A stretch of DNA of 64,000 nucleotides from Clostridia bacterium (GTDB taxonomy: Bacteria > Bacillota > Clostridia > RGIG6154): NCBI GenBank assembly GCA_045593265.1, contig JAZNWH010000129.1:4646-68645 (forward strand). Reading direction: 5' to 3'. Each line of letters begins with the position of its first letter. Positions within the stretch are counted from its first letter, which is position 1. Below the pieces are notes generated by a model that worked only from the letters and a program-made list of their open reading frames with translations, searched no databases and had not been told where the DNA came from. The translations under genes were made by a program, and so were the position numbers. Shown here one piece after another: positions 48,362-57,835 of the stretch.

Positions 48362-48391
48362 AAAAAAACGGTTGGTCATCCAACCGTTTTT
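48362..48391. terminator. Bidirectional terminator
   Basis: AAAAAACGGTTGG-tcat-CCAACCGTTTTTT. Confidence 0.75.
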
Positions 48392-49539
48392 TGATTTATT
48401 TCCGTTACTATATCTACTACCTTTGAAAGAATGTTTTCCATATCGTTAAGCCTATTTGCAATTTGTAAGAGTATTTGAGAGGTGTTATCATTTTCTATTG
48501 CTCTTTTGATACTTTTAATCTCCTCTGAAACACTTTTTGTTTCATTTTTGGTTACTCCTGCAAACTTTTCTATATTGTTATCATCTTCTGTATTATGTAA
48601 TTTTCTGCGATAATTGAGATAATCATTTTCTTTGCCAAACAACCTCTTATATTCGTTTCCTTTTTTAAATGCATAGGTGTAAATGTAGTTACTATCATTA
48701 AAATCAAAGTCCTTTTGACCTGATATTTTTACGAGCATATATTTTTCAAAACCATCACAATGAAGATAATTTACATTATCCCACCTCTCATCCTTAAATT
48801 TACTTGCCAGTAATTTACCATAATACTCAAACACACAAACGACACTTTCTTCGTTATTTAGAAGACAACACTGAACCGACTTTGACAAAGACGATGCAAC
48901 CACAGCTGAATCAACTATAACTTTATATGTATTTGAATTTTTGACACAACAGGCAATATGTTTATTATTTCCTTTATCCAGACACATACTTATATGGTAG
49001 ACCTTTTCTTCAAGTGTCATAATTCTTTCTCTGCTTTCCCATCTTTTGGACTTCCACACATATACTGCTGTTTGCAGTGTTTCTCCATTGGTATATGCTA
49101 TATGTATATTTCGTTTTTCATCTTTAACAATACAAAAATTTATTTCGTTTTCACTTTCGCATATAACATCGGGATTTGTTCTGCTACCAAATATTTGATG
49201 AACAAGCAGGTATTTTTCATTATGTTTTAAAACATAAAATCCACAAAGCCAATTGTTGTTGCTTATCAATGTTATATTGTGATTATAATTTTCATTTTTA
49301 GTTGATTCTAAAACACATTCTCTGTCCCATATTCCATTATATGCTGACACATAAAGATTTCCTTTGGTTTGTGTCATTACATACAACACACCATTTTCGC
49401 TTACAGCAACATCAAAATCATCCATATCACATTCACAGACTGTTTCACATATTTGCCTATCAGGTCTATAACACTTAAGAGCCCCATCGTCTGAAAAAAA
49501 TTCCCATATTCCATTGGTATCATAAACAAGTTTTTTCAT
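48376..49539 (-). CDS. Hypothetical protein (beta-rich repeats, C-terminal coiled coil), possibly sporulation-specific
   Basis: 387-aa ORF with GGAGG RBS; sigma-E-like promoter upstream. Confidence 0.7.
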   Translation of the reverse strand: MKKLVYDTNGIWEFFSDDGALKCYRPDRQICETVCECDMDDFDVAVSENGVLYVMTQTKGNLYVSAYNGIWDRECVLESTKNENYNHNITLISNNNWLCGFYVLKHNEKYLLVHQIFGSRTNPDVICESENEINFCIVKDEKRNIHIAYTNGETLQTAVYVWKSKRWESRERIMTLEEKVYHISMCLDKGNNKHIACCVKNSNTYKVIVDSAVVASSLSKSVQCCLLNNEESVVCVFEYYGKLLASKFKDERWDNVNYLHCDGFEKYMLVKISGQKDFDFNDSNYIYTYAFKKGNEYKRLFGKENDYLNYRRKLHNTEDDNNIEKFAGVTKNETKSVSEEIKSIKRAIENDNTSQILLQIANRLNDMENILSKVVDIVTEINQKTVG

Positions 49540-49593: not shown

Positions 49594-49620
49594 AACATTT
49601 TATAAAACTCAACATAGTAT
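49594..49620 (+). promoter_or_regulatory. Sigma-K-like promoter of the split gene
   Basis: AC (49595-49596)-16 nt-CATAGTAT. Confidence 0.45.
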
Positions 49621-49656
49621 GTATTGGGTGAAGCAATATTTCAAGGAGGTAAAAAT

Positions 49657-49871
49657 ATGAACAGAGAGGTTACTCCCGGTCCTATCACTAATGGAGGAAA
49701 CTGTATTAAGGAAGCAGTGTGTATACACACAGATAAAGTTTATGATTCCTGCAGAGATAAAGAGTGTCTTCAGGATTTAAGAGTTTATTTTACAGTTCCT
49801 GATCAGGCTATTATCGATGCCTCATCAAGTGTAAAAATCACAAACGCAGAAGTTTTATGGGTATACACAGA
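49657..49871 (+). CDS. 5' segment of the interrupted Cys-rich putative spore coat/exosporium gene
   Basis: AAGGAGGT RBS; MNREV...EAVCIHTDKVYDSCRDKEC...WVYT; joins in frame to 57171-57783. Confidence 0.85.
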
Positions 49872-49881
49872 GGTGTATCTT
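49863..49881 (+). other. attL recombination site
   Basis: ATACACAGA core (49863-49871) followed by the GGTGTATCTTT arm. Confidence 0.85.
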
Positions 49882-49899
49882 TTTACCAACTCTTTATCA

Positions 49900-49928
49900 T
49901 TGACAAAAACATTTTAGAGTGCTATAAT
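49900..49928 (+). promoter_or_regulatory. Perfect sigma-A promoter with extended -10 for the capD-cpsD-cpsB operon
   Basis: TTGACA-17 nt (ending TGc)-TATAAT. Confidence 0.8.
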
Positions 49929-49968
49929 TAAGGGTGAATATATAAAAAAATTAATATGCGGTGGTATT

Positions 49969-51846
49969 ATGAAAAATTTAAAACTGAACAAATATACTTT
50001 GCTATTTTCGTTCACAGATATTTTAACAATTGCTTGTGCTTTTTTTTGTGGTTTCTTACTATTAAATCCTTTGGGCGCTTTTTCGGAAAATGAACTATAC
50101 ACTCTATGTCAATATATACTTATAACAGCATTTGTCAACATGTTGTCATTGTTATTTTCGGGAACTTACAATAAAGTATGGACTAAAGCTACCATTGTTG
50201 ATTATTTCCAGACCGTTTTCTTAGTTTCTTTCAATTTTATATTTTCATATATAATCGCAATTATTGCAAATTCACATCATGTTTCGATCAAGCTTTACAT
50301 AGTTTCGGCTTTCCTTACCTGTATGCTTGTTTTTGTTTCCCGAACATCTGTAAGATTTTTATCATATTACCAGCATTATTTAATTTTAAAATCAAAACAC
50401 AATAAGCAAAAGAAAGTGCTGATAGTAGGAGCAGGCTCTGCAGCAAAAATGCTCCTTGAAGATATACTTCTTAACAATCCTCTTAGTTATAACATAGCCG
50501 GCTTTGTTGATGATAACACAGAAAAAGTGGGCAGTTATCTTATGGGATACCGTGTATTGGGTACAAGAGACGACATTCCTAAAATATGTGAAAAAGACAA
50601 TATTGATACAATAATAATTGCAATTCCTTCCGCTTCCAAAAAAGAGATATCAAGAATTTTAGAATACTGTTCAAAAACAGATTGCAATGTTAAAATGGTT
50701 CCTGGTATCGGGGAGCTTATAAGTGTCAATGATGTGGGAATTTTCAAGCAGACAAGAAACATTCAGTTTGACGACCTTCTTTCCCGCGAACCTGTATCTC
50801 TTAACAACAAAGAAATATCAAACATACTTAAAGATAACGTCGTTATGGTTACCGGCGGAGGCGGATCTATCGGAAGTGAGCTTTGCAAACAGATTGCAAA
50901 ATTTGCTCCCTCAAAACTTATAATTGTTGACATTTATGAAAACACAACTTATGACACACAAATTGAACTTAAAAAATCTTTTCCGAATCTTGAACTTGAA
51001 GTTATCATTGCATCCATAAAAGATGAGGAAAGAATGGAGAATATTTTTGATAAATACAGACCCGATATTGTTTACCATGCAGCAGCACACAAGCATGTAC
51101 CTCTGATGGAAGACAGTCCCGGCGAAGCTGTTGAAAATAATATTTTCGGTACATACATTGTTGCAAAATGTGCTGATAAATTTGAAGTTAAAAAATTCAT
51201 TATGGTTTCTACAGACAAAGCTGTTAACCCTACAAATGTTATGGGTGCAACAAAACGTTTCTGCGAGATGATTGTACAGTCAATGAATACTGTAAGTAAG
51301 ACAACCTATTCCTGTGTGCGTTTTGGCAATGTCCTCGGAAGCCACGGTTCAGTTATACCACTATTCAAAAAACAAATCGAACAAGGTGGCCCCGTTACTG
51401 TTACACATAAAGATATTACAAGATTTTTTATGACAATTCCTGAAGCAGCTCAGCTAATACTCCAGGCATCATCTTACGCTAAAAGTGGTGAAATTTTTGT
51501 TCTTGATATGGGTGAACCGGTTAAAATATATGACCTGGCAGTTAAATATATTAAGCTTTCCGGCTACAAACCCGGCATTGATATTGATATTGATATCGTG
51601 GGACTTCGTCCTGGAGAAAAGCTTTATGAAGAACTGTTAATGGATGAAGAAGGACTTACAAATACTTCTAACGAAAGTATCTTTATAGGAAAAACTACAG
51701 CAATTGACTTGAACGTTATCAAAACTCATCTTAAACATCTTTCAACAGTAGTTAACTCCAAAAACAATGATGAGATTATAAGTGCCCTTCATGATGCTGT
51801 TCCTACTTTTGTATCTGCGGATGACTACAATTGCATAAAATCATAA
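49969..51846 (+). CDS. Polysaccharide biosynthesis nucleotide-sugar dehydratase (CapD/PglF/EpsC family)
   Basis: 4 TM; VTGGGGSIGSEL, HAAAHKHVP, STDKAVNP, RFGNVLGS, GLRPGEKLYEEL. Confidence 0.93.
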   Translation: MKNLKLNKYTLLFSFTDILTIACAFFCGFLLLNPLGAFSENELYTLCQYILITAFVNMLSLLFSGTYNKVWTKATIVDYFQTVFLVSFNFIFSYIIAIIANSHHVSIKLYIVSAFLTCMLVFVSRTSVRFLSYYQHYLILKSKHNKQKKVLIVGAGSAAKMLLEDILLNNPLSYNIAGFVDDNTEKVGSYLMGYRVLGTRDDIPKICEKDNIDTIIIAIPSASKKEISRILEYCSKTDCNVKMVPGIGELISVNDVGIFKQTRNIQFDDLLSREPVSLNNKEISNILKDNVVMVTGGGGSIGSELCKQIAKFAPSKLIIVDIYENTTYDTQIELKKSFPNLELEVIIASIKDEERMENIFDKYRPDIVYHAAAHKHVPLMEDSPGEAVENNIFGTYIVAKCADKFEVKKFIMVSTDKAVNPTNVMGATKRFCEMIVQSMNTVSKTTYSCVRFGNVLGSHGSVIPLFKKQIEQGGPVTVTHKDITRFFMTIPEAAQLILQASSYAKSGEIFVLDMGEPVKIYDLAVKYIKLSGYKPGIDIDIDIVGLRPGEKLYEELLMDEEGLTNTSNESIFIGKTTAIDLNVIKTHLKHLSTVVNSKNNDEIISALHDAVPTFVSADDYNCIKS

Positions 51847-51896
51847 TCATTATATAGAAATTAAAATTCAATATATATTTTGAAAGGATTACTTAA

Positions 51897-52772
51897 ATGA
51901 AATTTTTACAAAAAAACAAAAACAAAGATAAAGCAAATGACAACAAGAATTACAAATATAATATTATTACAGACAATTCTCCTTTTTACATCAAGGAAGC
52001 CTATAAATCTTTGAGAACAAACATAATGTTCACTCTTGAAAACGAAACTTCAAAAGTAATTCTTATTACAAGCTCTATGGCCAAAGAAGGTAAATCAACT
52101 GTTTCAATCAACACTGCTATTACATTTGCCCAAACAGGCAGCAAAGTAATTCTTATTGATTGCGATTTAAGAAAACCTAAAATACACAGATATATGGATT
52201 TGCAAAATCAAAATGGTCTTTCTAATCTTCTAGGTGGATTTGCCAGCCTTGACGATGTAATCAGCCATACAAAATATGGATTTGACTGTATTACCTGTGG
52301 GCACATCCCACCAAACCCATCGGAATTACTTTCCTCAAATAAAATGGCAGACTTATTAGTTAAGCTTCGTGAGAAATATGATTACATCTTACTGGATACT
52401 CCTCCTGTGAATGTGGTTACCGATACCTGTGCAATCGGCAAGTTAGTAGATGGCGCGATTTTCGTTGTTAAGCACAACACCACAATGAATACAGACGTGG
52501 ATGCAGCTATTGCTGCACTTGAATTTTCAGAAACAAAAATACTTGGTTTTGTTTTCAACTCCTCTCCTACTGCAGGCGTTTTAGGATATCAAAAACGTGT
52601 TGGATACAGAAAATACTATTCATACAGAAAATATGGATATTCAAAAGGAAAATACGGATACTACAACAGCTACAAAAATTATGGTGGATACGGATATGGT
52701 TATTCTCCATCATCTTCAAAAACAGCGAATAACGAATCATCAAAAGATACAAATTCAGAAAATAAACAGTAA
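51897..52772 (+). CDS. BY-kinase, CpsD/CapB family tyrosine kinase
   Basis: EAYKSLRTN, EGKST, IDCDLRKP, LDTPP; C-terminal Tyr cluster. Confidence 0.93.
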   Translation: MKFLQKNKNKDKANDNKNYKYNIITDNSPFYIKEAYKSLRTNIMFTLENETSKVILITSSMAKEGKSTVSINTAITFAQTGSKVILIDCDLRKPKIHRYMDLQNQNGLSNLLGGFASLDDVISHTKYGFDCITCGHIPPNPSELLSSNKMADLLVKLREKYDYILLDTPPVNVVTDTCAIGKLVDGAIFVVKHNTTMNTDVDAAIAALEFSETKILGFVFNSSPTAGVLGYQKRVGYRKYYSYRKYGYSKGKYGYYNSYKNYGGYGYGYSPSSSKTANNESSKDTNSENKQ

Positions 52773-52844
52773 CCGAAACAACCACAACACTGAAGATGCC
52801 TTTAGTATTTGTGGCTTCGGCTGAGTTATCAGAAAGGTTAATTT

Positions 52845-53573
52845 ATGAATAATAATTTATGCATATGTGATTTTCATTCACATATACTCCCCTCTATTGA
52901 TGACGGTGCGAAAGATACATCTATGGCTGTAACTCTTCTGAAAGAAGAAATAGAACAAGGAGTAAAGCATCTTTGCCTTACTCCTCATTTTTATTCTAAT
53001 GAAAACGTTGAGTCATTCATAAAAAAACGCAACCTCTCGTTTCTTAAACTAAAAGAACAAATATATAAAGAAAACATCAAAAACGTACCTAATATGCATT
53101 TAGGGGCTGAAGTTGCTTTAAACTATACTACACCGGAAATACCTGATTTAAACAAGCTTTGTTTAGGCGATACGGAATTACTGCTTTTGGAAATGCCTGA
53201 CACATTTTGGGGAGATTGGATACCTGAGGTTTTGTACAGAATTTCAGCAGAAAAATCATTAACACCAATAATCGCCCATGCAGACAGATATATTGATAAT
53301 AAGAATTCCATAAAAATACTACAAAAACTGATAGATATGGATATTATTATGCAATTTAATTCGTACAATCTTACACATCCCAAGGTTGTCGGACTTATAA
53401 AGAAAATTCTTGCAAGAAATGTAAACACCCCATTGATTGGCAGTGATGCCCATAACACCAAATATCGTTCTGTTACAATCAAAAAAGTTAGTTCCCCACT
53501 GCATAAAATTCTATATGGTAAAAATTTCATAAATAATATAAATACATTTACAGAAAGTATTTTAATAAAATAA
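52845..53573 (+). CDS. PHP-type tyrosine phosphatase, CpsB/CapC family
   Basis: DFHSHILPSIDDGA, TPHF, IAHADRY, GSDAHN. Confidence 0.92.
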   Translation: MNNNLCICDFHSHILPSIDDGAKDTSMAVTLLKEEIEQGVKHLCLTPHFYSNENVESFIKKRNLSFLKLKEQIYKENIKNVPNMHLGAEVALNYTTPEIPDLNKLCLGDTELLLLEMPDTFWGDWIPEVLYRISAEKSLTPIIAHADRYIDNKNSIKILQKLIDMDIIMQFNSYNLTHPKVVGLIKKILARNVNTPLIGSDAHNTKYRSVTIKKVSSPLHKILYGKNFINNINTFTESILIK

Positions 53574-53600
53574 AACCTCTCATACGAGAGGTTTTATTTT
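53567..53600. terminator. Bidirectional terminator between the two convergent cargo units
   Basis: AAAATAAAACCTCTC-atac-GAGAGGTTTTATTTT. Confidence 0.8.
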
Positions 53601-54318
53601 ATGCTGTCGTTTTCTTTGGATTTTGTTCCTCATTTTCAAAAATCGGAAGCTCCGCAAGTACAGGATAATTAAATTTTTCTCTTAATGATACCGTATCTTT
53701 AATTCTGTCATCGAAAAGTTCTATCATAATCACAAGTGCAGCACCTATAACAAATCCTAACATAGACAAAACAGTTGCATTTCTTTTTGTATTTGGTGCT
53801 GATGTAGAACGTGGTATTTCAGGATGGTCTATAATCTTTACATTACCACCTGTAACAACTCTCGCAACCTCACTCTGGGCATTATTAAGTACAGTTTCAA
53901 CGATAATTGCCGCATGCTCAGGATTAGGATGTGTACAGCTTACAGAAATAATTTCTGTATCACCTTTTGCTGATACCGAAACAAAGGATGCCAACTGTCT
54001 GAAATTATAGTCAAGTCCTGTTTCTGCGCTAACACTCTTGAAAAATGTATTACTTGAAAGTATCTGTACATAATTCTTTACAAGCTCACGGGCATATATT
54101 ATATCTGAATACTCACCTTTCTTGGTCATATAATTACTGTTATCAGCAGTTATATATACGGACCCTCTTGCAGTATACACAGGTGTTACCATTAATTTTG
54201 TATACGCAACCGAACCTATAAAGAAAACTATTGTAAAAATAGCAACTACCCACCAACGATTTAATACCATTACTACTAAATCCCATACACTGATTTGTTC
54301 TCTGTTCAAAACTCTCAC
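53599..54318 (-). CDS. CpsC/CapA (Wzz-like) polysaccharide co-polymerase / BY-kinase activator
   Basis: Two TM; TPVYTA, DDRIKD..., PVLAELP. Confidence 0.88.
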   Translation of the reverse strand: MRVLNREQISVWDLVVMVLNRWWVVAIFTIVFFIGSVAYTKLMVTPVYTARGSVYITADNSNYMTKKGEYSDIIYARELVKNYVQILSSNTFFKSVSAETGLDYNFRQLASFVSVSAKGDTEIISVSCTHPNPEHAAIIVETVLNNAQSEVARVVTGGNVKIIDHPEIPRSTSAPNTKRNATVLSMLGFVIGAALVIMIELFDDRIKDTVSLREKFNYPVLAELPIFENEEQNPKKTTA

Positions 54319-54350
54319 CTCATTGTAAATGTTATCTAAAACTATAATTA

Positions 54351-55214
54351 TTAATCAAGAGACAATATATCTTTAACTGCGTATACCGCTTCTTTACTGA
54401 TAGTACATTTCATCAAATAAACTTTCGCAACATCAATCAGCTTTTTTAAATCATCAATAAAAATACTAACCATATGTTCCAATACAGGTTTATTAATTTC
54501 ATTATATAGCCTGAAAAATGCTGTAACACCATCAATCTGAGATATTTCCACACTGCTATGCTGTTCAATACAAATTATTCCTGCAAGTCTTGACTTTATA
54601 TTGTTATTTATAAAATGCTTGCCTGACCACGGTGTTCCGTAAACATATACTTCTCCATCTGTTATTCTCATAACAGGATTATCATCATTGATATAAACAA
54701 CATCCTCTAAGTGTTGTTTCCACAAAGATGTCTGTGTAGACTTTCCCGTTCCTGATGGTGCAGAAAACAAGATAGCATTTCCTTTATATGAAATAGCGGA
54801 GGCGTGAATAACATACGCATGATGCATCATCAACATATAATAAAAGGCCTGTCCAACTAATCCAAATAACTTTAAATCAATTGACGGCCCACCTATCAAA
54901 GATGTATCCTTAGCACAGATATCTGCACGATTAAAATCCTTATTCCATGTTATTTTCGCAAGGCACAAGTCGTAGCTTTGAGAATAAGTATATGCATATA
55001 CAGAACCATCAGCATTATCAATGTGCCATGAAAAACGCCCTGCACCTACAACATCTTCGTCAAAACGTTCAAGTTCAATTTCATCCTGCACTTTATAAGT
55101 AATAACCATATCTGCACCCGAAAACGGCATTTCATACTCTTTTAACTTTTCAGACAGAAAAGCATTAGAGTTGCCTGTTATTTCAAGCTTATATCCTGCA
55201 ATTAAATACTTCAC
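54351..55214 (-). CDS. HPr-kinase-like P-loop protein (RiPP/lasso-peptide kinase-like)
   Basis: IHASAI, SAPSGTGKST, INDD, YGTPWSGK. Confidence 0.75.
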   Translation of the reverse strand: MKYLIAGYKLEITGNSNAFLSEKLKEYEMPFSGADMVITYKVQDEIELERFDEDVVGAGRFSWHIDNADGSVYAYTYSQSYDLCLAKITWNKDFNRADICAKDTSLIGGPSIDLKLFGLVGQAFYYMLMMHHAYVIHASAISYKGNAILFSAPSGTGKSTQTSLWKQHLEDVVYINDDNPVMRITDGEVYVYGTPWSGKHFINNNIKSRLAGIICIEQHSSVEISQIDGVTAFFRLYNEINKPVLEHMVSIFIDDLKKLIDVAKVYLMKCTISKEAVYAVKDILSLD

Positions 55215-55216
55215 TT

Positions 55217-55399
55217 TTATGTATTTGTGTTGCTTGTTCCATAAGCTTCCAACAAACCAATTTCATTATCTGTAACAAGACCAGAATCGCTATATCCATC
55301 AGATTGCGAATCAGAAACAGAGTCCGGAACCAATGCAGTAACGGTTTCTTTAACCTGTAATTCAACTATATTCAAAATTGGCTTTTCATATTTAATCAT
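55217..55399 (-). CDS. Putative RiPP precursor peptide (60 aa)
   Basis: GGAGG RBS; leader KYEKPIL (YxxPxL); Ser/Asp-rich C-terminal half; lies between PqqD and the kinase. Confidence 0.65.
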   Translation of the reverse strand: MIKYEKPILNIVELQVKETVTALVPDSVSDSQSDGYSDSGLVTDNEIGLLEAYGTSNTNT

Positions 55400-55499
55400 A
55401 TACTAAACCTCCAATACCAACTTCATTCATTAATAACTAACATCCATACTTTGCATTTTCTTCTGACAAAGCACATAAAAACACTAATTTTACTCCTAT

Positions 55500-55528
55500 A
55501 TTATATACCAAATTCTCTTAAAAGTCAA
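55500..55528 (-). promoter_or_regulatory. Sigma-A promoter of the peptide-kinase unit
   Basis: TTGACT-17 nt-TATAAT. Confidence 0.7.
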
Positions 55529-55547
55529 TAGAATAAAATGTAAATCA

Positions 55548-55826
55548 TCAATTTTCCAATAAGTTTTGACTTGCAAGCTTAAAAACAAATTCATTGACAT
55601 CATTATCGGCACATTCAACATCAATTTCAAATGCTTCTGCAAATTTGCTTACCAATTCGCTATATTCTGTTCCTTCATCAAGTTGTTGCCATATCCATGC
55701 ACCTGTTTCATTTGTTGTAAGCATCTTTTTGAAGTCTACTATATTTTTCCCAGTTGGCACCACTATATAATCTCCTGCTATGTTCTTTAAAACAAAGCCG
55801 CTTTTGTGTTTAAGAAATTTTCTCAT
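55548..55826 (-). CDS. PqqD-family protein (stand-alone RiPP recognition element)
   Basis: FVLKNIAGDYIVVP, NETGAWIWQQL, DVNEFV..L...NLL. Confidence 0.88.
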   Translation of the reverse strand: MRKFLKHKSGFVLKNIAGDYIVVPTGKNIVDFKKMLTTNETGAWIWQQLDEGTEYSELVSKFAEAFEIDVECADNDVNEFVFKLASQNLLEN

Positions 55827-55861
55827 ATAATTATCTTCTTCCTTTAATTAGCTTTACGTTA

Positions 55862-55890
55862 ATTATATCATTTTTTTTTGAATTAATCAA
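55862..55890 (-). promoter_or_regulatory. Sigma-A promoter of the PqqD gene, with an A9 tract in the spacer
   Basis: TTGATT-17 nt (ending TGa)-TATAAT. Confidence 0.55.
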
Positions 55891-57019
55891 CATCTTTCCA
55901 AAATACCGTAATGTCTTTACTGCTTAAAACAATTCTTTTCACAAGATTTTGAATTACAAAAAAATCCAGGTATTTATTATCTTTTTCTAAGCGTAATTTC
56001 TTTAGTATAATTTGAATAATTTTATTTTCTGATACATTATTACGACAATCTACACATATAATCTTTTGGTTTTTTCTTATACATTTTCCACCACATTCAC
56101 ATTTCAGCAAACCACTTAAAGGATTCATCAACCCGTTTTTATCACTTCTATGACCATTTTTTATTTTTTCCTGAGTAAATGCATATATTTGTGGGTCGAT
56201 TATTCTCTTATGAGTATTTTTTACACATATCCATTCATTTTCAGGAACAGATATTCTTTTTTTGCTTTTATAGCTTAATTTATTTTTCCTGTTTTGAACC
56301 AGGTTTCCGCAGTAAACAGGATTTGTCAAAATATCCTTAACTGTTCCCCCTGTCCAGTTATAGCCTTGTTTTTTCTCTCTGTAATTCATAGGAGAAACAA
56401 TTTTTTCTTTATTTAATATCTGGGCAATTTTAGATGTTCCGAAACCAAAATTATATAACCAGAATATAATCCTTACTGTCTGTTCTGTTTTGGCATCCTT
56501 AATCAGTTGATTTTTATTTTCAGGGTTTTTCATATATCCATAAGGTGCAAAAGCAAACAAACACTCCCCTTTTCTCATCTTATCCTTGAACACCGCTCTT
56601 ATATTTTCTGACAAATCCTCAAGGTACCATTCGTTTATAAGTGAATTAATCTGTCTTGTTTTTTTGTTGTTTTTATCATATGAATCAGTATTGTCAACTA
56701 CAGATATAAACCGTATACCCAGCTCAAGAAATTTGTTGTTAATAAATTTATCTATTATACTGATATCTCTTGAAAATCTTGACATCGTTTTACATATTAC
56801 TGTATCAAAACATTTATTTTCTGCATCTTTAAGCATTCTGTTAAACTCAGGCCGTTCTGCATTTATTCCCGAATAATCCTCATCTACATATATATTGTAT
56901 ATATCGTAGCAGTTATCTATACAGTAATTTATCAACATACTTTTTTGATTTAAAATGCTTTCACTTTCATCGCCGGTTTCATCTTCTTTTGATATTCTGC
57001 AATATAATGCCGCTTTTAT
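55883..57019 (-). CDS. Large-serine-recombinase family protein (378 aa from an ATA start; SpoIVCA/TndX-like)
   Basis: Frame extends upstream of the called ORF to IKAALYCRISKED (catalytic Ser); also DEDYSG...RP, SRFSRD, APYGY, ILTNPVYCG and a Zn ribbon CECG/CVDC. Confidence 0.9.
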   Translation of the reverse strand: MKAALYCRISKEDETGDESESILNQKSMLINYCIDNCYDIYNIYVDEDYSGINAERPEFNRMLKDAENKCFDTVICKTMSRFSRDISIIDKFINNKFLELGIRFISVVDNTDSYDKNNKKTRQINSLINEWYLEDLSENIRAVFKDKMRKGECLFAFAPYGYMKNPENKNQLIKDAKTEQTVRIIFWLYNFGFGTSKIAQILNKEKIVSPMNYREKKQGYNWTGGTVKDILTNPVYCGNLVQNRKNKLSYKSKKRISVPENEWICVKNTHKRIIDPQIYAFTQEKIKNGHRSDKNGLMNPLSGLLKCECGGKCIRKNQKIICVDCRNNVSENKIIQIILKKLRLEKDNKYLDFFVIQNLVKRIVLSSKDITVFWKDVD

Positions 57020-57110
57020 CTTTATTCACTCCTTCATGATAATATTTTTCGATAAATTTTATTAGTTCTTCAATCTTTGCTTTGTTAAAATTTTTATGAA
57101 TTACTTTCAT
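56979..57110 (-). CDS. 43-aa ORF overlapping the recombinase start (candidate directionality factor or translational-coupling leader)
   Basis: GGTGG RBS; MKVIHKNFNKAKIEELIKFIEKYYHEGVNKDKSGIILQNIKRR*. Confidence 0.45.
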   Translation of the reverse strand: MKVIHKNFNKAKIEELIKFIEKYYHEGVNKDKSGIILQNIKRR

Positions 57111-57157
57111 TCAACCACCAATTAATTATATTGCTGATGCAAAGCGAAAAGAACAAC

Positions 57158-57174
57158 AAAGATACACAGATGTG
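57158..57174 (+). other. attR recombination site
   Basis: AAAGATACAC arm + AGA (core ATACACAGA at 57162-57170) followed by TGTG. Confidence 0.85.
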
Positions 57175-57783
57175 GAACCCGTTCAGTTCAATCAGGGCTA
57201 CTATACTGTTGATATAAGATTCTATTTCAGAGTTACTCTTGATGTATACGCTGAACTTGGCAGACCTAAGAGAGTCGAAGGCATTGCTATTTATGACAAA
57301 AAAATTGCACTTTTCGGTTCCGAAGGCAAGTCAAAGATATTCCAGTCATCTTTCAATGAAGGTGCACCTGATAAACAGATAAGAGAAAAAAGCAATGTTC
57401 CTAAAGCTGTAGTTGAAGTAGTAGATCCTATTGCACTCAGCGCAAGAATTGCAGATAAATGTTCTGATAATTTATGTTGCGGCAATTGCGAAGTATCTTC
57501 AATACCTGAATGTATTTTAAATTGCTTCGAAGGTGCAATTTGTCCTGCAGATACAGAAAAAAGAGTTTATGTTACTTTAGGATTATTTACAATAACAAAA
57601 CTCGAAAGAAATGTACAGCTTCTCATTCCTGTATATGATTTCTGTATTCCTACTGACGAATGTGTTTCATCTTCTCCTGCTAATCCTTGCGACTTGTTCG
57701 ATCAGATTCAGTTCCCGGTTGATGAATTCTTCCCACCTCAGAAGCACGATTTCTTCGGTAACAACAATTGTGATTGTCAGTAA
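57171..57783 (+). CDS. 3' segment of the interrupted Cys-rich putative spore coat/exosporium gene
   Basis: No convincing RBS; VEPVQFNQGYY...PCDLFDQIQFPVDEFFPPQK...CDCQ*; in frame with 49657-49871 after excision. Confidence 0.85.
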
Positions 57784-57786
57784 AAG

Positions 57787-57835
57787 TATAAAAGAACATC
57801 TCCAAAAGATTTCCTTTTGGAGATGTTCTTTTATA
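57787..57835. terminator. Bidirectional terminator
   Basis: TATAAAAGAACATCTCCAAAAG...CTTTTGGAGATGTTCTTTTATA. Confidence 0.8.

Follow-up and report, generated by a model that had tools for sequence, protein, structure and literature searches.

The 64-kb window analysed here, the whole stretch of the Clostridia genome (G000) presented above, contains a gene putatively of the CsxA family, csxA, that is split in two by a 7.3-kb element with a serine recombinase of its own. This is probably a gene-intervening element akin to skin, SPbeta and gin, non-phage and domesticated, which would be excised to rebuild the gene. A skin-like rearrangement had been proposed in a first-pass annotation made from the DNA letters alone, and the proposal gains support from an element at the same codon in the genus-mate G013, from purifying selection on its parts and on the gene, from the layout of the attachment (att) sites, from a sigma-K-type promoter in front of csxA and from the presence of Spo0A, SigE and SpoIVA in the genome.

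The split gene and the ends of the element

The left open reading frame (ORF) starts at ATG 49657 behind a strong ribosome-binding site (RBS; Table 1) and encodes 71 residues ending in AEVLWVYT, followed by an unrelated tail of 15 residues before the stop codon, just as the annotation had described a frame that drifts off after WVYT. The right ORF (57172-57783) starts with MEPVQFNQ from a GTG and has neither a Shine-Dalgarno sequence nor a promoter of its own, in line with the missing RBS noted earlier; this GTG is the sole start of the 3' fragment and is itself a product of the junction. Both breaks carry the 9-mer ATACACAGA, again as first seen in the annotation. A scripted join at this repeat reproduced the gene that had been predicted, with 828 nt, 275 aa, 16 cysteines and zero internal stops, the junction reading ..VLWVYTDVEPVQFNQ.. 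(protein VYTDVEPV), and the strong terminator claimed downstream is a stem of 20 bp. The joined product is colinear end to end with the intact homologue P0007 (69% identity over 266 residues, 1 gap). The ORFs at 49657 and 57172-57783 are confirmed as two halves of one gene.

In a protein search with the 3' half, 1022 of 1112 candidates matched at E <= 0.001. The closest among the matches listed, P0001-P0003 (98, 77 and 79% identical), are 201-203 aa long and represent 3' halves too, and from P0004 on most of the 120 matches listed measure 265-301 aa, i.e. they are intact and read through the break (e.g. P0007, ..AEIIRVYTDVEPVPFNQGYY..). The annotation had suggested looking for intact single-ORF homologues across the break, YT/DVEP (the slash marks the interruption), and had regarded halves that occur only as separate genes as evidence to the contrary; uninterrupted homologues turn out to be the rule, in most of the 120 listed as well as in 13 of the 18 genomes of the family. 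Both fragments in the window are open, and they might function as two separate polypeptides with no DNA rearrangement. This is highly improbable, since the 3' fragment has no expression signals other than the junction-made GTG, and since the conserved recombinase and the palindromic att sites would be left unexplained.

In the standard site layout of serine integrases, a central dinucleotide lies between inverted arms. The predicted attP of the excision circle, AAAGATACAC-AGAG-GTGTATCTTT, forms a perfect palindrome of 10 bp about a centre of 4 bp, and the rebuilt attB has imperfect inverted arms, GGTATACACA-GA-TGTGGAACCC. In G013 the cores are GTACACGGATGTG on the left and GCACACAGATGTG on the right, which differ by single bases from the window and from each other. 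Across the two genomes the central GA, the preceding ACAC and the following GTG are kept in 4/4 half-sites, the GA is the centre of the attP palindrome, and both joins are in frame. Unoccupied sites are seen in intact family genes, e.g. gtatttacaGATgtcgaaccggtt. A serine-integrase layout of the predicted att sites is supported, and the short direct repeat, the inverted-repeat arms and the exact restoration of the frame in the window and in G013 are those of an intervening element. The 9-mer itself is present five times in the 64 kb (0.5 expected; 0/100 shuffles reach 5); it is thus not unique, and its significance comes from lying precisely where the gene is broken on either side. Independent metagenome contigs span attL in run X1 and attR in runs X1 and X7, the latter from two studies, so that the insertion does not stem from misassembly. 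The element holds a third copy of ATACACAGA (52169-52191), which falls within a conserved motif of the kinase-type ATPase gene and matches the element-side arm of attR at 19/23 positions (AAGAA.A.C..AA.ATACACAGAT); it may be a chance occurrence or a pseudo-site.

Conservation, sporulation context and proposed rearrangement

The family scan covered 18 genomes (the family is the whole order), all of them metagenome-assembled, as are all other genomes compared here. An uninterrupted single copy of csxA was found in 13, and the gene is split only in G000 and in its only genus-mate, G013, in both at YT/DVEP; the remainder are a copy with three in-frame TGA codons (G008), a fragment at a contig end (G011) and a genome with no match (G002). 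No second csxA copy was found in G000. The two parts in G013 lie 7.3 kb apart and flank an element of 7,310 bp that is syntenic with that of the window (68-78% nucleotide identity), the locus being colinear through both flanks and the whole element (68-87%), and the joined gene is open there as well (822 nt, 273 aa, 16 Cys). As a separate observation, the G008 copy (L015/L024, G008:C31:298-1071) is accompanied by a short N-terminal fragment on another contig, with no recombinase nearby within the DNA fetched around its csxA fragments, and may be a pseudogene or a recoding case.

Synonymous divergence (dS) between the window and G013 is about 0.9 to saturated throughout. The csxA halves nevertheless share 96% (5') and 89% (3') amino-acid identity, with ratios of nonsynonymous to synonymous divergence (dN/dS) of 0.026 and 0.053, respectively. 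The ratio is 0.07 for the recombinase, 0.075 for the flanking HtrA gene and 0.13-0.22 for those cargo genes with measurable dS; for the CapD-like, kinase and upstream flank genes dS is too saturated to give one. That both halves are conserved despite saturated dS argues most strongly that csxA is still in use and hence must be rebuilt, since a gene killed before the species split would have decayed. A dead insertion, which would make csxA a pseudogene in this genus, would agree with the interruption in both known species of the genus and with the single copy in G000. Yet it is very improbable, given a dN/dS of 0.03-0.05 on both halves, a conserved recombinase and joins that are in frame in both species despite their differing cores. 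Beyond G013, a genome-contig scan with the recombinase gave 33 loci, all just 32-43% identical, and no closer relative; a metagenome-contig scan with the csxA 3' half gave no match, and one with alignment A5 returned relatives at 42-49% identity that are mostly full-length.

Pfam and NCBIfam profile scans found no family for either half or for the intact homologues, the Pfam set searched being one without PF27077, and a PDB sequence search with P0007 gave no match. Homologues that are 52-62% identical to the 3' half bear a precomputed PF27077.1 label, and PF27077 is named CsxA in the protein Atlas. Membership of the window gene in the CsxA family is an indirect but reasonable assignment, and the labels agree with the likeness to CsxA that the annotation had pointed out. 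CsxA, which is rich in cysteines, makes up the basal exosporium layer of Clostridium sporogenes (PMC7333573) and was reported with 24 cysteines in that species (2026 bioRxiv preprint). The 16 cysteines in 275 aa of the joined product fit a cysteine-rich protein of a spore former, and the families that carry csxA have SpoIVA. Among 399 scored genomes of the class sample, a csxA-like match was found in 195 and SpoIVA in 302; tallied over 30 families, SpoIVA is present in 15/15 csxA-positive families, and csxA is missing from the five families (21 genomes) that lack SpoIVA.

G000 itself encodes Spo0A (322 bits; cut-off 200), SigE (369.5 bits; cut-off 348.6) and SpoIVA (E 1e-221). The consensus for sigma-K consists of AC and CATAnnnTA at a distance of 16-17 nt, and a sequence of this kind precedes csxA. 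A loose form of the motif, AC-N15-18-CATAnnnT, occurs upstream of csxA at 14/14 loci (the window, G013 and 12 intact orthologues; L009 was dropped, as the anchor expression missed the gene), compared with a mean of 1.44 and a maximum of 6/14 in Markov-resampled controls. A stricter pattern, defined after viewing the data, is found at 13/14 loci versus 0.018 in the controls; the loci are relatives, so that both counts overstate independence, though the surrounding non-coding DNA has diverged freely. The interruption of csxA is certain, and the sigma-K-type promoter together with the CsxA label suggests that the interrupted gene is one expressed in the mother cell. A further observation concerns sigK, which appears to be interrupted in G000 too: on L154 (G000:C68) positions 1444-1839 encode a 131-aa N-terminal half that ends in ..ATYASRCIDN/SILT and a stop codon and scores 150 bits over model residues 5-119, followed by an XRE-type gene (1839-2447) and the contig end. 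No C-terminal sigK half was found in the G000 assembly, and the full-length sigma factor on C28 is SigE (369 bits).

The rearrangement proposed for this locus would proceed as follows. In growing cells and in the forespore csxA would remain split, and the capsule-type genes of the element would be transcribed from the sigma-A promoter in front of them. During sporulation the short serine recombinase would act in the mother cell, probably with the 43-aa protein whose gene overlaps its own, and pair attL with attR, so that strand exchange would occur at the central GA of ATACACAGA. The products would be a 7.3-kb circle with the palindromic attP and an intact 828-nt csxA, and the sigma-K-type promoter would then express the rebuilt gene. 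The germ line would keep the element because only the terminal mother cell would be rearranged. As far as sequence comparison can speak to it, programmed excision appears well supported.

The recombinase and its candidate partner

The annotation had placed a serine recombinase beside the right junction. Both its presence and its place hold, the gene lying 137 bp from the right core, but its start needs correcting, as no ATG, GTG or TTG precedes the codon for the catalytic serine. Pfam recognizes Resolvase (E 6.5e-23) and Recombinase (E 4e-20) and no other domain, and the motif ALYCRISKEDE, which includes the serine nucleophile, aligns with AIYCRLSxED of relatives. Compared with relatives of 511-521 aa (45-50% identical), a loop in the cysteine cluster is missing; the cysteines align with those of the relatives, but the loop is shortened and Zn_ribbon_recom gives no Pfam match. 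The coiled-coil region of large serine recombinases, ~110 residues between Zn_ribbon (313-370 in P0129) and DUF4368 (479-521), is absent, and in the AlphaFold2 model (mean predicted local distance difference test score, pLDDT, 76) two 11-residue helices take its place. Foldseek places the model near the structures of the SPbeta, Bxb1, PhiC31 and LI integrases (E 1e-19 to 1e-9; SPbeta best), so that by domains and by fold the element has its own serine recombinase, as intervening elements do. A natural recombinase without coiled-coil may excise without the usual autoinhibition, and such an enzyme kept under selection is of mechanistic interest.

The gene overlapping the recombinase start, orf43, has its own RBS (GGTGG) and a G013 counterpart of the same length with 65% identity. 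Its dS is lower (0.5), which is expected because two frames overlap. No family match was found for it in Pfam or NCBIfam. The predicted complex of orf43 with the recombinase scores 0.83, versus 0.02 for the best of three controls; the mark for such scores is reached by 58/80 solved complexes and 2/110 mismatched pairs, a calibration that is approximate, with our own alignment used. The partner chain has a pLDDT of at least 76, the runs share at least 83% of contacts, and the predicted contacts involve recombinase residues 182-207, 277-280 and 331-380, including the last beta-strand. With moderate confidence, based on this model, orf43 is taken to be an accessory factor of the system. GirX, the directionality factor of gin, is likewise described as a protein of 42 aa with no known motif (PMC5595907). 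A likeness noted by eye, which would make orf43 a relic or copy of the C-terminal DUF4368 module of full-length relatives, is not supported (BLASTP E 0.24; no Pfam match at E up to 10).

Several points weigh against programmed excision of a csxA-family gene as proposed here. The comparison rests wholly on metagenome-assembled genomes, and membership in the CsxA family is indirect, relying on the labels of homologues. Before orf43 and the recombinase neither a sigma-70-like site nor, in both species, a site resembling sigma-E or sigma-K promoters as we know them was found, so that sporulation control of excision is unsupported on this side and we infer its timing and cell type. No contig with the 49871-57171 join or the attP junction was found in four runs at a depth of ~3-6, where assembled Logan contigs, which drop rare variants, are uninformative on excision either way. 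Furthermore, the recombinase has no coiled-coil, and an engineered deletion of this motif inactivates the PhiC31 integrase and leaves the LI integrase weakly active, with loss of the difference between integrative and excisive reactions (PMC10754689). Finally, the recombinase frame has no ATG, GTG or TTG between the in-frame TGA 57028-57026 and the catalytic serine, and therefore an ATA start or a frameshift is needed, or the enzyme is dead in this strain.

The frame in question reads ATG AAG GAG TGA ATA AAG ATA AAA GCG GCA TTA TAT TGC AGA ATA TCA and the N-terminal translation is IKIKAALYCRISKEDE; the 351-aa recombinase ORF originally listed begins at an internal Met downstream of the catalytic serine. 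The order AAGGAG and then, 9 nt on, ATA-AAA-GCG is kept in the window and in G013. In G013 the TGA is replaced by CGA, and an ATG two codons further upstream, without Shine-Dalgarno sequence, opens an ORF of 386 aa. It could be that the element is active in the lineage and frozen in this strain, where a C-to-T change made the TGA and the only usable start was lost, with csxA no longer able to be rebuilt here, as the ATG...CGA in the same frame of G013 would suggest. This is unlikely, however, as the ATG of G013 lacks a Shine-Dalgarno sequence that the ATA has in both species, as 27/29 of the N-terminal residues are identical to G013 and as the rest of the ORF is intact. In addition, P0122 (79% identical), P0123 (72%) and P0124 (57%), the closest relatives with complete C-termini, are also called from an internal Met, suggesting that they too have no canonical start upstream; these gene calls hint that a non-canonical start may be a clade feature. 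A +1 frameshift out of orf43 at GAT-AAA-A, which would make orf43 an N-terminal extension of the recombinase, is less likely than the ATA start, given the strong AAGGAG 9 nt before the ATA in both species and the complex model, in which orf43 is a separate bound chain. For the translation of the recombinase we rank an ATA start first, a recent knock-out in the strain second and the frameshift last.

The missing promoter and the missing coiled-coil also bear on the possibility of a reversible switch at the population level, outside the mother cell. Here a recombinase that has lost its directionality control along with the coiled-coil would both excise and re-insert the element during growth, which would amount to phase variation of the spore surface, of the capsule module or of both. 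Without a sporulation promoter in front of the recombinase, excision could occur at other times, as for yin of Clostridium botulinum, reported as excised at all time points (PMC10747680), and a coiled-coil deletion erases the difference between attP x attB and attL x attR recombination by the LI integrase (PMC10754689). Such a switch is nonetheless quite unlikely, since excision in dividing cells would lose the non-replicating circle, and the element has been kept at the same codon since the species split; at a second csxA site, described below, the element is retained in 11/11 species of one genus.

Other Clostridia, known elements and the cargo

Programmed excision at csxA would not be confined to the genus of the window, as the gene is split at this site or at a second one in at least five further Clostridia families. 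A genome of family f36, G405, is split at the same YT/DVEP codons (site 1; L142 2472-3206 and L143 3372-5259), and its recombinase, a full-length enzyme of 511 aa that is 48% identical to that of the window, is encoded in the same direction as the adjoining 5' half; the element there may represent an undomesticated form. Site 2, near residue 155 within NLPKAVVEV/VDPI, is much commoner than site 1. Among the 61 genomes sampled in f36, csxA matched in 58, with 25 intact genes and 30 site-2 5' parts, besides one genome with a 3' part only, G405 and one decayed copy. The 3' part is present in 28/30 genomes with the 5' part, and in 16 both are on the same contig, 4.4-16 kb apart. Family f46 (41 sampled, 38 matched) has 22 intact genes and 12 site-2 5' parts, as well as two genomes with a 3' part or pieces only and two split elsewhere. 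Its genus g120 is split in 11/11 species, seven of which have the parts on one contig just 1.35-2.34 kb apart. Single site-2 cases were found in families f12, f37 and f38. Four genomes (G309, G475, G450 and G481) have csxA either in three pieces, interrupted around residues 90-98 and 155, or with a break around residue 238, which suggests further insertion sites or double insertions.

All five site-2 loci fetched (L026, L027, L028, L144 and L145, from G052, G298, G181, G428 and G117, respectively) have a recombinase of 282 aa next to the 3' half. The five share 51-59% identity among themselves and ~30% with that of the window, and those of G298 and G181 consist, according to Pfam, of Resolvase and Recombinase only, the latter reaching nearly to the C-terminus, with no zinc-ribbon domain. 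The element in G181 is a GAF-domain gene and the recombinase, nothing more. The G298 element, whose core ACACAGA is close to ATACACAGA, carries two large S-layer-homology proteins as cargo, and joining the gene halves there gives an open frame (286 aa, 23 Cys). The recombinase ORF of G298 (L027 11360-11420) crosses the attR core and has its stop codon in csxA sequence, so that its last residues would change on excision.

Judged from these gene structures, csxA has been targeted repeatedly, with no fewer than two sites and two recombinase lineages involved, one of 380 aa without coiled-coil and with a 43-aa partner, the other of 282 aa without zinc-ribbon domain, and locally the element has become fixed throughout a genus. 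We consider the odds about even that csxA is, for gut Clostridia, a major hotspot of domesticated elements that rearrange DNA, and one undescribed so far. If so, a large share of the spore formers of the gut would depend on DNA excision to assemble their outermost spore layer, and the mini-recombinases would be natural, possibly factor-independent excisionases. The recurrence in at least six Clostridia families, reaching as much as half of the sampled species in one family and all those sampled from one genus, would lead to a testable general rule on how gut spore formers build their surface. The enzymes are natural truncations of large serine integrases that lack parts thought to set directionality and thereby bear on structural models of directionality control; they may also offer very small tools for site-specific excision.

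Some six sporulation genes, namely sigK, spsM, spoVFB, spoVR, gerE and yabG, are known to harbour gene-intervening elements, which to our knowledge are mostly single-species curiosities. A literature search found no paper linking CsxA to a recombinase, homologue lists in supplements lying outside that search. The papers that combine intervening elements, sporulation and exosporium concern yabG, sigK and spsM, and none concerns csxA by title or abstract; in a 2026 preprint on CsxA structure the words "interrupted" and "sigK" are absent. The kind of system is thus known, and what is new is csxA as the target, a cargo of capsule genes behind a vegetative promoter, the truncation of the recombinases together with the very small partner predicted for them, and the breadth of occurrence. 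The finding also stands apart in that its target is a structural gene of exosporium type.

The closest parallel is gin in gerE of Bacillus cereus ATCC 10987, which is non-phage, splits a mother-cell sporulation gene, has a 9-bp overlap at its ends and encodes a serine recombinase, GirC, along with a very small accessory protein, the 42-aa GirX, that is needed for its excision (PMC5595907). By contrast, gin measures 28.6 kb and has three recombinases, including a full-size GirC of ~58 kDa (PMC5595907), compared with 7.3 kb and one recombinase of 380 aa here, where moreover a structural spore-surface gene is interrupted and capsule-type genes under a sigma-A promoter make up the cargo. The skin elements in sigK (SpoIVCA in B. 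subtilis; CD1231 and CD1234 in C. difficile) are likewise excised by serine recombinases in the mother cell to rebuild a late sporulation gene, and the forespore keeps the element (PMC5025042). They differ in being prophage-like, in interrupting a regulator and in using full-length large serine recombinases with a separate directionality factor. SPbeta, at 134 kb, differs in being an active phage, and its SprA has ~535 aa and a coiled-coil. Its likeness lies in the target, the spore-envelope maturation gene spsM, and in a serine integrase that recombines attL with attR under the direction of a small factor, SprB (PMC4191935; PMC5499854). For yin in yabG of C. botulinum, a recombinase with Resolvase, Recombinase and Zn-ribbon domains and a putative small directionality factor found by complex modelling were described (PMC10747680); yin is prophage-like and strain-specific, whereas the element here is non-phage and fixed across species. 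The fdxN element of Anabaena is also excised during development by a serine recombinase (XisF), in a cell type that is terminal, and NCBIfam XisF matches the window recombinase at E 1e-27; the score of 97 against a cut-off of 375 bits is a likeness at family level only, in another phylum and another developmental programme.

The features of the locus are collected in Table 1.

Table 1. Coordinates of csxA, the intervening element and associated signals in the window
Feature	Position	Strand	Remarks
Sigma-K-type promoter of csxA	49595..49620	+	ACA-N16-CATAGTAT; fits the consensus
RBS of csxA	49643..49649	+	AAGGAGG, 7 nt upstream of ATG 49657
csxA 5' segment	49657..49871	+	71 codons and two bases, core included; aligns with residues 1-71 of intact homologues
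attL core	49863..49871		ATACACAGA; likely crossover dinucleotide GA at 49870-49871
Intervening element	49872..57170		7,299 bp; boundaries slide within the 9-bp core
Sigma-A promoter driving the cargo operon	49900..49928	+	TTGACA-17-TATAAT with TG; 12/12 consensus positions
CapD-like polysaccharide biosynthesis protein	49969..51846	+	625 aa; Pfam Polysacc_synt_2, E 2e-121
P-loop ATPase of capsule tyrosine-kinase type	51897..52772	+	291 aa; Pfam ParA and AAA_31
CpsB/CapC phosphatase	52845..53573	+	242 aa; Pfam CpsB_CapC, E 4e-33
Wzz chain-length determinant	53599..54318	-	239 aa; Pfam Wzz and GNVR
HprK-related-kinase-like protein	54351..55214	-	287 aa; weak NCBIfam TIGR04352, E 1e-4, below cut-off
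PqqD-family protein	55548..55826	-	92 aa; Pfam PqqD, E 6.5e-16
Serine recombinase	55883..57025	-	380 codons from ATA 57025; catalytic Ser codon 56992-56990; Pfam Resolvase and Recombinase
orf43	56979..57110	-	43 aa; overlaps the first ~15 recombinase codons; candidate accessory or directionality factor
Shine-Dalgarno sequence AAGGAG	57029..57034	-	9 nt before ATA 57019-57017, inside orf43; followed by in-frame TGA 57028-57026
attR core	57162..57170		ATACACAGA; exactly at the right break
csxA 3' segment	57171..57783	+	In frame after the core; 203 codons and stop; aligns with residues 72-275 of intact homologues
Bidirectional intrinsic terminator after csxA	57788..57834		20-bp stem

The cargo of the element is dominated by capsule-type genes, and both hexamers of the sigma-A promoter in front of them are kept in G013. 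The kinase identity of the ATPase is putative and based on gene context. Between the HprK-related-kinase-like gene and the PqqD gene the minus strand holds an ORF of 60 aa, and the cluster of these three (54351-55826) resembles peptide-modification cassettes in its arrangement. A counterpart of the 60-aa ORF was not identified in G013, where the nearest ORF of that length aligns poorly. The PHROGs collection matched four of the nine element proteins, one to integrase and the others, which belong to the capsule genes, to families of sugar epimerases, of ParA-like proteins and of unknown function. None of the nine matched a phage family for structure, packaging or lysis, which sets the element apart from a prophage. 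The G+C content is equal inside the element and in its flanks (0.30-0.38), so that composition does not point to a foreign origin. With capsule genes expressed vegetatively inside a gene for the spore surface, the locus would represent a host module living within a developmental switch. The flanks consist of housekeeping genes, encoding RNase Y, a DnaB/DnaI-like protein, MurJ, HtrA and a response regulator. The gene directly upstream of csxA (387 aa; 48376-49539, minus strand) has no family match and is the fastest-evolving gene locally, with 46% identity to G013.

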